DNA of 64,000 bases from Escherichia coli (GTDB lineage: Bacteria; Pseudomonadota; Gammaproteobacteria; Enterobacterales; Enterobacteriaceae). How positions within the stretch are numbered: position 1 is the stretch's first letter; every line of letters begins with the position of its first letter. Where the stretch lies: NCBI RefSeq assembly GCF_003334385.1, contig NZ_QOWN01000002.1. One strand, 5' to 3'. The translations under genes were made by a program, and so were the position numbers. This document shows positions 42,809 through 47,195 of this stretch, in pieces. Under the pieces are notes generated by a model. That model was given only the letters and a program-made list of their open reading frames with translations, ran no database searches and was not told where the DNA came from.

Positions 42809-43849
42809 TCAGAACAACAGCGCCAGCCCGCCGACAATCACACCAGACACTGCCACCATCGCCCCTGTCAGCCATAAGGCTTTCGCCGGGAACGCTTTGC
42901 GCAGCATAATCAGTGACGGCAAACTCACTGCCGGGAGCGTCATCAACAATGCCAGCGCCGGAGCGGTTCCCATACCTGCCAGCATCATCGTTTGTACAAT
43001 CGGAATTTCTGCTGCCGTGGGAATGACAAACAAGCATCCTGCTACCGCCATCGCCACCACCCACATCAGGCTGTTATCGACAGCACCATCGGCATGGGGG
43101 AATAACCAGACGCGAGCGGCACCCAACACCAGTACTGCAAGGATGTAAACCGGGATCGTACTCCAGAAAAGCGTCCATAGCGCCCTGCCCCAGCGGCTAA
43201 AAAACCCGCCCTGTGCTTCCGGTATGTCAATTTCGACCGGTGCCTGCGTTTGCGGTGTTTCACGCACCCATTTTTGCACCAGCGTCGCAATCAGCAACAC
43301 CATCACCAGCCCGGCCACCAGACGAATCACCGCAAAACCCCAGCCGAGGACAAAGCCCATAAACACCAGCGTCGCCGGGTTTAACACCGGATTGCCCATC
43401 CAGAATGCCAGCGCACCGCCCATCGACACCTGTTGGCGACGCATTCCCGCCGCGACCGGAGCCGCACAGCAGGTACACATCATGCCCGGCAACGAAAACA
43501 GCGTTCCCAGCAGCGTGCCGCGAAAGCGCGATTGCCCAAGCGTACGCAACAACCAGTCACGCGGGATCAGCACCTGAATCAACGAACCGAGGATCACCCC
43601 CAGCACCGCCGCTTTCCATACCGCGAGGAAATAGATCATCGCGTAATCCAACGCCGCCTGCCATGGGTTAGCATCCGCCTGCGCAAGGATAGATTTACCG
43701 ATACTGTGGGTTTCGGCAGCAGTAAACGCTTTGCCGTAGTAAGGTTCCCATTTCACATACCAGAGACCGGCAATGACAACGAGAAAGAAAAGCGCGGGTT
43801 TCCACCACTGAATGGGCGTTGCCGCCTGAGATGAAGACTGACCAGTCAT
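42809..43849 (-). CDS. yraQ: Putative permease YraQ, 346 aa
   Basis: 346-aa multi-TM ORF; function not established. Confidence 0.9.
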   Translation of the reverse strand: MTGQSSSQAATPIQWWKPALFFLVVIAGLWYVKWEPYYGKAFTAAETHSIGKSILAQADANPWQAALDYAMIYFLAVWKAAVLGVILGSLIQVLIPRDWLLRTLGQSRFRGTLLGTLFSLPGMMCTCCAAPVAAGMRRQQVSMGGALAFWMGNPVLNPATLVFMGFVLGWGFAVIRLVAGLVMVLLIATLVQKWVRETPQTQAPVEIDIPEAQGGFFSRWGRALWTLFWSTIPVYILAVLVLGAARVWLFPHADGAVDNSLMWVVAMAVAGCLFVIPTAAEIPIVQTMMLAGMGTAPALALLMTLPAVSLPSLIMLRKAFPAKALWLTGAMVAVSGVIVGGLALLF

Positions 43850-43921
43850 AGCATTCCCCAGGAATAAGTTATGATAATTGAGCGCGTGAATATTACGCTC
43901 ACTATCAATTCTTGGGAATAA

Positions 43922-45182
<1,261 letters not shown>

Positions 45183-45203
<21 letters not shown>

Positions 45204-45626
45204 GTCGCGTAGCCAAATCATTTTTTTACCAAAGCCCAGCGTGTTGTCGGTGAATTTGATTTCATCGAGCCGGATTTCCCACACCGGGGCCGACAGCATT
45301 CTGGCAACCGGAAAGCGACGATTGTACGCCTTGCGCGCGAGGTCGCTTTCCTCACCTTCCAGCCTGCGGATCTCACCTTTAAACTGCACACCGCGAATTA
45401 ACGCTACCGTTTTCGGCTGACCGTTTACCGTTCCGGCAACCGCAGCCTGCGGCCCACTCATCTGCGCGTGGCGCGTTTTTTCTTCCGTCAAAATGTAGAA
45501 GGCGACTTTCTGCGCATCAAAAAGATAAAAGGCATTAGCGCACCAGAGTTCCCCTTCCTGCTGCACACACCAAGTGACAACATGTTGTTTTGCCAGCCAA
45601 CGGCTGATGGCGATGAGTGTTTCCAT
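45183..45626 (-). CDS. yhbP: UPF0306 protein YhbP (PNPOx-like fold), 147 aa
   Basis: 147-aa ORF convergent with and overlapping the yhbO 3' end. Confidence 0.9.
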
Positions 45627-45676
45627 TGCTGTTCTCTTTTATACTGTGGGCCTGACCTTAACATGCGACGCAGACG

Positions 45677-45979
45677 ATGACACCCTGGTTTCTTTACTTG
45701 ATCCGTACCGCCGACAATAAGCTTTATACCGGGATCACCACGGATGTCGAACGCCGCTATCAGCAGCACCAAAGCGGCAAAGGGGCGAAAGCACTGCGCG
45801 GGAAAGGAGAACTAACGCTGGTGTTTTCCGCGCCAGTGGGCGATCGTTCGCTGGCGTTACGGGCGGAATATCGCGTTAAGCAACTGACCAAACGGCAAAA
45901 AGAGCGTCTGGTAGCGGAAGGCGCAGGGTTTGCAGAGCTGTTAAGCAGTCTGCAAACCCCGGAGATTAAAAGCGATTGA
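45677..45979 (+). CDS. yhbQ: GIY-YIG domain protein YhbQ, 100 aa
   Basis: N-terminal …[27 protein letters not shown]… GIY-YIG motif. Confidence 0.9.
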
Positions 45980-46469
45980 AATGCTCGTGATACTCAACCA
46001 GGCCGGTAACGCCATTCAGCGCGTCATCCGCTAAACGATGTACCTGGAAGGCGCTTTCAGTGCCCGGCCAGCGGCAACGCAGATCGTGATGCGCCGCCAG
46101 TTCAAAGCCGAAACGACTGTACAGCGCCGGATCGCCCAGCGTCACCACTGCGGCATAGCCGAACTCATTAAGCGAATCGAGTCCTTCATAGACCAGTTGG
46201 CGTGCCAGCCCCTGTCCACGGTATTTTTCATCAACCGCCAACGGTGCCATGCCGACCCATTGCAGGTCTTCGCCCTGCACATCAACCGGACTAAATGCCA
46301 CATAGCCAATGACCTGACCTTCGTCATCTGTCGCCACCAGCCCCAGCGTCAGAAAGCCATCTTCACGCAGATCGTGAACCAGCTTCGCTTCCGCATCACT
46401 TTCGAATGAGCGACGCAGCAGGGCATCAATACCCGGCGCATCAATGGGAATTTCTACTCGAATTAGCAT
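45966..46469 (-). CDS. yhbS: GNAT-family N-acetyltransferase YhbS, 167 aa
   Basis: 167-aa GNAT-like ORF (…[13 protein letters not shown]…) overlapping the yhbQ 3' end. Confidence 0.9.
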
Positions 46470-46987
46470 GGTTCACCTACCGATGTCTGTTTGGTTTCAG
46501 GCGCGGTTTTCATTCCCGCCTCAACAAAATCCGCCAGTTGCAGCAGCATCATGCGTAAGGCTTTCGGCATTTGCTCCAGTTCAATGGCGTCCATCAGGTT
46601 TTTCACATACAGCCCCAGCTCCGTATCGCCTTCAATCACCAGCCGACGCTGGAAGAAGAGCGTATCCGGATCTTGTTTACGCGCCGCAATCATCAGCAGA
46701 TCGCTGGCGTCGGCACTAAAACTCACATCAGCTTGCGCGTTCTGGCTAACGACCAGTTTGCCATTCACCACCGAGGTAAACCATTGCAGGTCAATATCAC
46801 GCACATGAATACTTAACCAGCGGCCTTCAAGAAACTCCAGCTCGCCATCATCCAGCGCCTGGCGGAATTGCCAGCTTAAGACCTGCTCAAGAACCTGGCG
46901 TTTTAGCGCAAATGGCGTCAGTTTTACCGGTACACTCAACAGAGATGGCCCCAAATGCACAATACGGGAACGCAGTTTATCCAACAC
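46463..46987 (-). CDS. ubiT: SCP2-domain lipid-binding protein UbiT (YhbT), 174 aa, GTG start
   Basis: SCP2-like ORF; start placed at GTG (MLDKLRSRIVHLGP…); track began at an upstream TTG. Confidence 0.85.
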   Translation of the reverse strand: MLDKLRSRIVHLGPSLLSVPVKLTPFALKRQVLEQVLSWQFRQALDDGELEFLEGRWLSIHVRDIDLQWFTSVVNGKLVVSQNAQADVSFSADASDLLMIAARKQDPDTLFFQRRLVIEGDTELGLYVKNLMDAIELEQMPKALRMMLLQLADFVEAGMKTAPETKQTSVGEPC

Positions 46988-47195
46988 GAGTTTTACTCCC
47001 TGTTTCAACAATCATCCTATTTTGCCATATCAGAAAAATAACATAGCGGTATAAATCAACAATTCCATATGAAATTGCTGCTACCACCAATACAACTTTA
47101 ACTGCCTTAAATCAAAAATTGTCGCAGCAAGGTTAACTAAAATCCCAGTTCGTTAACATTTTTGCGTTTTGATAGCGCAACCTTCAGGAAAAATT

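Follow-up and report, generated by a model that had tools for sequence, protein, structure and literature searches.

Four short genes of Escherichia coli, yhbO, yhbP, yhbQ and yhbS, alternate in strand and overlap tail to tail in two pairs, raising the question of whether this arrangement reflects a joint function of the encoded proteins, mutual regulation by antisense RNA, or neither. The genes lie in a stretch of 64,000 nucleotides, analysed here as a whole and referred to as the window, in which positions 44400-47400 match E. coli K-12 MG1655 with 100% identity. This segment was found in 5425/5426 complete E. coli genomes, with a median of one site each and very seldom outside the chromosome. 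The locus is an ordinary, already annotated stretch of the E. coli K-12 chromosome, and what calls for explanation is its layout.

Gene order and gene ends

Gene coordinates, taken from the RefSeq annotation of the K-12 record and converted to window positions, are collected in Table 1 with the other features of the locus. The RefSeq annotation bore out the alternation of strands described at the outset, yhbO(+), yhbP(-), yhbQ(+), yhbS(-), and the 3′ overlaps of 21 nt (yhbO/yhbP) and 14 nt (yhbQ/yhbS) proved exact, the stop codons of a mechanically generated list of open reading frames being those of RefSeq for all four genes. The extent first given to the block, 45183-46469, covers yhbP, yhbQ and yhbS, but takes in just the last 21 nt of yhbO. 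Nor is yhbS a free-standing member of a four-gene block, as had been supposed: it shares 7 nt with ubiT, which is read from the same strand, and is part of the ubiT operon.

Table 1. Features of the yhbO-yhbS locus and its flanks, in window positions.
Feature	Position	Strand	Description and source
yraR	43922-44557	-	NAD(P)H-binding protein, left flank; RefSeq annotation, tblastn synteny
yhbO	44685-45203	+	DJ-1/PfpI family, 172 aa; RefSeq annotation
yhbO/yhbP tail-to-tail CDS overlap	45183-45203	both	21 nt
yhbP	45183-45626	-	YhbP-family (UPF0306), 147 aa; RefSeq annotation
Terminator-like hairpin and T-run	45463-45485	+	~260 nt past yhbO stop, inside yhbP antisense; consensus scan
Divergent spacer, yhbP start to yhbQ start	45627-45676		50 bp
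yhbQ	45677-45979	+	GIY-YIG, 100 aa; RefSeq annotation
p19-captured RNase III 22-bp dsRNA, ‘yhbQ yhbS’	45944-45967	both	Both strands sequenced; PMC7373196 Table S3
yhbQ/yhbS tail-to-tail CDS overlap	45966-45979	both	14 nt
yhbS = hqbA	45966-46469	-	GNAT acetyltransferase; RefSeq annotation
ubiT/yhbS same-strand overlap	46463-46469	-	7 nt
ubiT (yhbT)	46463-46987	-	SCP2-domain accessory factor, anaerobic ubiquinone synthesis; RefSeq annotation, NF047962
ubiU	47196-48191	+	RefSeq annotation
ubiV	48200-49078	+	RefSeq annotation

Corrected gene ends might have abolished the overlaps, and they did not. Mis-called ends are excluded because the 3′ ends are set by unambiguous stop codons and homology in these frames extends to the C-termini: the profile match to TIGR01382 covers residues 4-171 of the 172 of YhbO, that to NF002900 covers residues 1-146 of the 147 of YhbP, and YhbS is identical to PDB 4RS2 as far as residue 167. 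At the other end of the central pair, the promoters of yhbP and yhbQ must overlap within the 50-bp spacer or sit within the neighbouring gene.

The layout itself is not beyond chance, and is unremarkable. Of 4131 adjacent pairs in E. coli, 75 are convergent CDS that overlap (PMC4161906); by our own arithmetic, approximately 1.4 cases of two convergent overlaps one junction apart are expected per genome under independence. Strand switches separate 15/63 adjacent features of the window, a rate that would yield approximately 14 stretches of five genes alternating in strand in every genome.

The encoded proteins

The initial annotation had presented the four genes as being of unclear role, a description that is outdated for three of them, which have published or database-assigned functions; its protein assignments stood for PfpI/DJ-1, GIY-YIG and GNAT, while that of YhbP as ‘PNPOx-like’ held at the level of fold only, with no Pfam hit.

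YhbO scored 233.6 bits against TIGR01382 (cutoff 139.05), is identical in sequence to the crystallised E. coli YhbO (PDB 1OI4), and has the nucleophile elbow Cys104-His105, with motif AICHG. It is a well-characterised glutathione-independent methylglyoxalase (PMC11987610). YhbS carries a GNAT domain (PF00583, E = 1.1e-11) and is identical over residues 2-167 to PDB 4RS2. It has been renamed HqbA; its binding to the Hfq distal face does not depend on acetylation, the protein trims weak RNA binders, and its gene is the second of the Fnr-induced ubiT-hqbA operon (PMC10710024). RT-PCR has placed ubiT and yhbS on a single transcript, ubiquinone synthesis having no need of yhbS (PMC10470549).

YhbQ consists of a bare, stand-alone GIY-YIG domain (PF01541, E = 4.5e-16, residues 4-76). 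Its homologues number 6790 cluster representatives at E ≤ 0.001 (HMMER), and among solved structures the UPF0213 proteins BH0048 (1ZG2) and EF2693 (1YWL) are nearest to it. Across 51 diverse homologues W4, Y7, Y17, G19, R27, H31, K68 and K75 were invariant and E64 was at least 90% conserved. In a profile alignment that also included SLX1, Y7, Y17, R27 and H31 matched Y6, Y17, R27 and H31 of I-TevI. A loss of catalytic residues, which would have told against the nuclease assignment, was not seen, Y7, Y17, G19, R27, H31 and E64 all being intact. No conserved Asn followed E64 in the alignment of the 51 homologues; a C-terminal Asn is typical of the UvrC/homing-endonuclease lineage, and because it is missing YhbQ is placed, by the criterion of PMC1564403, in the Slx1 lineage. 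Judged from these alignments, YhbQ is a minimal GIY-YIG nuclease of the Slx1/UPF0213 branch, with predicted activity. The RefSeq product name is ‘DNA damage response exodeoxyribonuclease YhbQ’, and one preprint cites the protein as a DNA damage response nuclease.

YhbP matched the NCBIfam ‘YhbP family’ model alone (NF002900, 267 bits); no Pfam match was returned even at E ≤ 10, and the precomputed Pfam field was empty for all 120 of the homologues listed. An AlphaFold2 model built from 37 orthologues (pLDDT 92.3) was compared with the PDB by Foldseek, which recovered PNPOx-like and heme-binding split barrels (best E = 6.6e-8, probability 1.00, TM 0.7-0.79). YhbP is therefore confidently predicted to be a split β-barrel protein, PNPOx-like or HugZ-like at the level of fold only.

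The two pairs share a feature at their 3′ ends. In YhbP the conserved core extends to R140 and is followed by a variable tail of 0-10 residues, of which residues 144-147 are disordered in the model (pLDDT <50); on the yhbP strand, the 21-nt overlap codes just for this unconserved tail, that is, residues 142-147 and the stop. Conservation of YhbQ likewise stops near K75-L79, the C-terminal tail being variable after approximately residue 81 and the homologues ranging from 86 to 107 aa. The termini of the partners, YhbO and YhbS, belong to solved domains (1OI4 and 4RS2). E. coli YhbQ alleles of 89 and 92 aa were considered as truncations that might remove the overlap, and were rejected as such, being internal in-frame deletions in which the overlap is kept.

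Conservation across species

Conservation was assessed in a sample of 80 species-representative loci anchored on YhbQ, found using an alignment of eight YhbQ sequences; eight E. coli proteins were located in these loci by tblastn and each homologue was extended to its stop codon. Among the 80 loci, the yhbO-P-Q-S block was confined to Enterobacterales. No block gene was found within 8 kb of the YhbQ homologue in 24/80 loci (Gilliamella, Aeromonas, Ferrimonas, Marinobacter, Mariprofundus, several MAGs and Serratia oryzae), and no YhbQ homologue outside Enterobacterales had a PfpI, YhbP or GNAT neighbour. A YhbQ partner recurring across lineages outside Enterobacterales was not found among the 24 loci. 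Repeated neighbours outside Enterobacterales took the form of within-genus synteny, in Marinobacter, and of serA/serC-like genes in some Pseudomonadales MAGs.

Even within the order, yhbO was inconstant. A divergent yhbP stood beside yhbQ in 44 loci, of which 24 had yhbO and 20 did not; the gene was missing in E. albertii, several Citrobacter, Kluyvera, Shimwellia, Edwardsiella and others, yhbP then directly preceding yraR. Two strains of Citrobacter youngae differed in its presence, and one locus retained a decayed remnant. The four genes had been called core rather than accessory, which holds inside E. coli; across Enterobacteriaceae it fails for yhbO. The initial annotation had also found the presence of a GIY-YIG protein next to a deglycase unexplained. 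There is no association to explain: yhbP lies between the two genes, and the puzzle dissolves because the adjacency is neither direct nor conserved. Co-occurrence and adjacency of all four genes across lineages, by which a conserved functional cluster would be recognised, were not observed in this sample, and nothing points to joint action of the four genes. More generally, adjacency in one genome, here of a nuclease and a ‘deglycase’, does not establish a functional link without comparative evidence.

The junctions between the genes were conserved to different degrees. The 7-nt ubiT/yhbS overlap was invariant, being found in 51/51 loci with both genes. In 55 loci yhbS converged on yhbQ, and the two overlapped in 47, by 14 nt in 29 loci and otherwise by 4, 10, 17, 28, 32, 35 or 43 nt. 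The eight loci with no yhbQ/yhbS overlap comprised four with inserted genes, two with strongly structured inserts and two with short gaps. The inserted genes occupied 1.5-1.9 kb and encoded a PutP-like symporter (two Edwardsiella loci), a porin-like protein (one locus) and a threonine-dehydratase-like protein (one locus); the short gap of Rahnella bruchi contained a classic A-tract/hairpin/T-tract, with hairpin AAAAGGCCGG-GAA-CCGGCCTTT. Where yhbO was present it overlapped yhbP by 21 nt (8 loci), 15 nt (6 loci) or 4 nt (3 loci), and four Pantoea loci had, in place of an overlap, a gap of 23-37 nt filled by a GC-rich hairpin. The yhbP-yhbQ spacer measured 45-60 bp in 30 of the 44 loci and was partly conserved in sequence.

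Two aspects of this pattern sit less easily with drifting stop codons. Retention of the yhbQ/yhbS overlap in most loci, with the 14-nt form present across several families, may reflect selection for transcriptional coupling in addition to conservation of the YhbS C-terminus. Retention of the divergent yhbP-yhbQ pair with its spacer of approximately 50 bp, in 44/51 loci, hints at shared control.

Antisense RNA and the origin of the overlaps

Because each stop codon sits within the coding sequence of the partner, the mRNAs of each pair are complementary over at least 21 nt or at least 14 nt, and because a terminator cannot fit between the stops, each mRNA runs into the other gene. That convergent overlap entails mutual antisense transcription, as was proposed from the layout, agrees with published data for both pairs: yhbO-yhbP and yhbQ-yhbS are named among the 165 convergent excludons of MG1655 in an RNA-seq-derived excludome (PMC12288877, ExcludonFinder, NAR 2025), entry into which requires that a pair be seen in 50% or more of the 58 RNA-seq data sets. 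The same excludome lists two more convergent pairs from the 64-kb window, agaR-yhaV and cyuA-yhaL. Double-stranded RNA has moreover been captured at the yhbQ/yhbS junction (PMC7373196, mBio 2020). The 22-mer of this p19 duplex maps uniquely to 45946-45967, at the 3′ end of yhbQ and reaching 2 nt into the yhbS stop codon; the duplex is perfectly paired and was represented by 584 and 274 reads (6.8 and 3.2 RPM), one of thousands in that capture, in which dsRNA from convergent 3′ overlaps was far scarcer than that from divergent 5′ overlaps (PMC7373196). Antisense transcription here is real, already published and common in E. coli, and the overlaps themselves are already known. A regulatory consequence of the antisense overlap seems rather unlikely.

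A consensus scan returned no terminator in either overlap, and its total of 7 hits did not exceed that in shuffled sequence (4.3 ± 2.1). The terminator-like hairpin inside the yhbP antisense (Table 1) was weighed as a conserved terminator and discarded, since it occurs in K-12-like sequences only and is absent or degenerate in other yhbO-positive species. An Rfam scan of 43500-47500 found no family; a sub-threshold match to CRISPR-DR22 in the ubiT-ubiU spacer (E = 0.32) was taken as chance.

The overlaps are most probably a matter of compaction, stop codons having drifted in a piece of the genome that holds four independent transcription units; drift of this kind, following terminator loss, has been proposed as a general mechanism for convergent overlaps (PMC4161906). 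The units, of unrelated function, under separate regulation, characterised separately and carried on a vertically inherited chromosome, would be yhbO (encoding a stress-induced glyoxalase), yhbP, yhbQ and the Fnr-induced ubiT-yhbS (hqbA). An intergenic terminator hairpin, such as some relatives still carry, would have been lost first, and the weakly constrained tails of YhbP and YhbQ would then have extended into the conserved 3′ end of the gene converging on each. Wherever both genes are transcribed a sense/antisense duplex would form and be cut by RNase III; the duplex would be a by-product of compaction, as in well over 100 other E. coli pairs, and no dedicated device would link the four proteins. 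Gene identities, the overlaps, the overlapping transcripts with their dsRNA and the lability of the arrangement in evolution are established by the present results or by published ones; we infer the order of events, with hairpin loss preceding overlap, and the absence of a regulatory role. The 14-nt form probably persists largely through conservation of the C-terminal codons of YhbS, the antisense of which contains the TGA of yhbQ. Read in this way, the locus would be a textbook example of tail-to-tail overlaps arising from drifting stops in unconstrained protein tails.

Could the pairs instead be functional excludons, in which transcription of each gene represses its convergent partner, polymerases colliding and RNase III cleaving the duplex? 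Under anaerobic conditions, ubiT-hqbA driven by Fnr would then lower yhbQ, stress-induced yhbO would lower yhbP, and expression within each pair would be mutually exclusive. This is unlikely. The listing of both pairs in the excludome, the RNase III duplex at the yhbQ/yhbS junction, the lack of a conserved intrinsic terminator in or near either overlap and the frequent retention of the yhbQ/yhbS overlap (47/55 loci) are all consistent with it, but overlap length and sequence vary between species, and several lineages have swapped the overlap for a terminator hairpin, for structured repeats or for entire genes, no compensation being seen. The scarcity of the yhbQ/yhbS duplex among the thousands captured, and the low yield of dsRNA from convergent 3′ overlaps generally, argue in the same direction. 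A related proposal, that the overlaps, above all the widely retained one between yhbQ and ubiT-hqbA, are a selected device through which anaerobic, Fnr-driven read-through of ubiT-hqbA silences YhbQ by collision and RNase III, with the spacer of approximately 50 bp co-regulating yhbP and yhbQ, is unlikely.

Compaction also accounts for the layout with far greater probability than would a damage-control cluster, in which, for example, YhbO and YhbQ, helped by YhbP and YhbS, would repair nucleic acids that are glycated or damaged. RefSeq names do mention nucleic-acid deglycation for YhbO and a DNA damage response for YhbQ, and the four genes are physically adjacent in E. coli; yet yhbO is missing from 20 of the 44 yhbP-yhbQ loci, the block genes are not near YhbQ homologues in 24 other loci, and the genes form four separate transcription units on alternating strands. 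Moreover, YhbS acts on Hfq (PMC10710024), its phenotype was unaffected by deletion of yhbQ or yhbP from the library plasmid, and YhbO is a small-molecule glyoxalase in recent biochemistry (PMC11987610). Such a cluster is very improbable and already largely refuted by the phylogenetic pattern of the genes. That the overlaps stem from faulty annotation, or that the block is a mobile or defence island, is scarcely conceivable, the small size of the genes and the nuclease domain being its sole support and the reading being refuted by the unambiguous stops with homology to the C-termini, the near-universal presence of the locus in E. coli, typically at one place and almost always on the chromosome, the lack of PADLOC family matches for YhbO, YhbP, YhbQ and YhbS, and the lack of an Rfam family in the region.

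Among known systems, yhbO-yhbP and yhbQ-yhbS resemble the other convergent excludons of MG1655 in having overlapping convergent transcripts in published data, and differ in that the overlap extends beyond the UTRs to the coding sequences. An excludon in the strict sense implies reciprocal regulation, whereas what is documented for these two pairs is transcript overlap.

The proteins, too, have close counterparts. YhbQ is like Slx1/YhbQ proteins (UPF0213, COG2827) in its minimal GIY-YIG domain with Tyr, Tyr-x-Gly, Arg, His and Glu; it differs from eukaryotic Slx1 in being without a RING/PHD finger and without an Slx4 partner, and from some Firmicutes relatives in that the methyltransferase neighbour or fusion seen there is not found at E. 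coli yhbQ. The predicted fold of YhbP is that of PNPOx-like FMN-binding split barrels, including the heme-binding proteins HugZ, ChuZ and HutZ, although identity to its structural matches is 9-20% and there is no sequence-level membership of a PNPOx family. YhbO agrees with the YhbO/PfpI class of DJ-1 superfamily glyoxalase III in its Cys-His elbow and in its conversion of methylglyoxal to lactate; ‘protein/nucleic acid deglycase’ is a database name, whereas biochemistry supports glyoxalase activity (PMC11987610). Finally, yhbS at this locus is the characterised hqbA, co-transcribed with ubiT in the ubiT-hqbA operon beside the divergent ubiUV operon.

Convergent junctions

In Pantoea and Rahnella bruchi loci where the convergent yhb genes do not overlap, a GC-rich hairpin, for example AAAAGGCCGGGAACCGGCCTTTG, lies inside a 23-59 nt gap. 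These hairpins look like bidirectional terminators, and their presence in the gaps of non-overlapping loci suggests that the overlapping state in E. coli came after loss of such a hairpin. The yhbQ/yhbS junction has also taken in unrelated genes, of 1.5-1.9 kb, in four species: a threonine-dehydratase-like protein with a small winged-helix-like ORF in one and a 417-aa porin-like protein in another, while the two Edwardsiella species have a PutP-like symporter of 468 aa. Shorter inserts of 113-135 nt, possibly REP-like, lie in the yhbQ/yhbS gaps of two further species and are highly structured (about -44 to -51 kcal/mol).

Two other convergent pairs of the window, agaR-yhaV and cyuA-yhaL, are included in the published E. 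coli excludome (a list of convergent excludons; PMC12288877) despite having no overlap of coding sequences, so that 'excludons' make up half of the eight convergent pairs in the window.

Window positions and loci of the features described (L-numbers are species-representative loci anchored on YhbQ; L083 is the record from which coordinates were converted)
Feature	Window position	Loci or source
Hairpin gap, yhbO-yhbP junction		Pantoea loci L059, L078, L079, L080
Hairpin gap, yhbQ-yhbS junction		Rahnella bruchi locus L047
Gene inserts, yhbQ/yhbS junction		L029, L032, L049, L055
Structured inserts, yhbQ/yhbS gap		L015, L040
agaR/yhaV	about 20.6-21.1 kb	converted from L083
cyuA/yhaL	about 0.7-2.4 kb	converted from L083
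yhbO polymorphism	44558-45203	L003, L004, L007, L008, L010, L017, L018, L024, L026
YhbP	45183-45626	
yhbP-yhbQ spacer (K-12)	45627-45676	inverted repeat in L009-L028, L073
yhbQ	45677-45979	
Sub-threshold CRISPR-DR22 match	47019-47055	Rfam

Variation in yhbO and yhbQ

Comparison of species loci showed that, between yraR and yhbP, yhbO and its 127-bp upstream spacer constitute a presence/absence polymorphism across Enterobacterales. E. albertii lacks the gene, as do several Citrobacter. The two C. youngae-labelled strains disagree (yhbO in L005, none in L007), and a decayed fragment is still present in L010. In genomes without yhbO, a distance of 3-48 bp separates yhbP from yraR and both are on the same strand, an operon-like arrangement.

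Within E. coli, in-frame deletions inside yhbQ occur in some genomes, the protein variants having lost 11 residues (49-59; P0050 and P0052) or 8 residues (P0038). Strain MSB1_9I (genome match H1) has an IS1A element inside the 3-kb matched region, and the sequence of its YhbQ product (P0031) departs beyond residue 84. Given these deletions and the MSB1_9I divergence, damage to yhbQ is evidently tolerated in nature.

Intergenic spacers

The yhbP-yhbQ spacer of many Enterobacteriaceae holds an inverted repeat, GGTG-CGCT-CACC, with the -10-like motifs CATGCTA and TTAACAT on its flanks; E. coli K-12 has a degenerate form, GTGGGCCTGACC. Repeat and motifs could represent an operator or overlapping divergent promoters. 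A sub-threshold Rfam match to CRISPR-DR22 in the ubiT-ubiU divergent spacer, in the same region as published Fnr sites, is almost certainly due to chance; its score is 21.9 bits (E 0.32), where the gathering score is 50.

Predicted fold of YhbP

YhbP matched no Pfam family at all. Its fold is predicted, with high confidence, to be a split barrel, and H53 is invariant among 37 aligned orthologues. The best structural matches of the model included PNPOx-like proteins together with HugZ, ChuZ, HutZ and MSMEG_6519, which are heme-binding and heme-degrading proteins.
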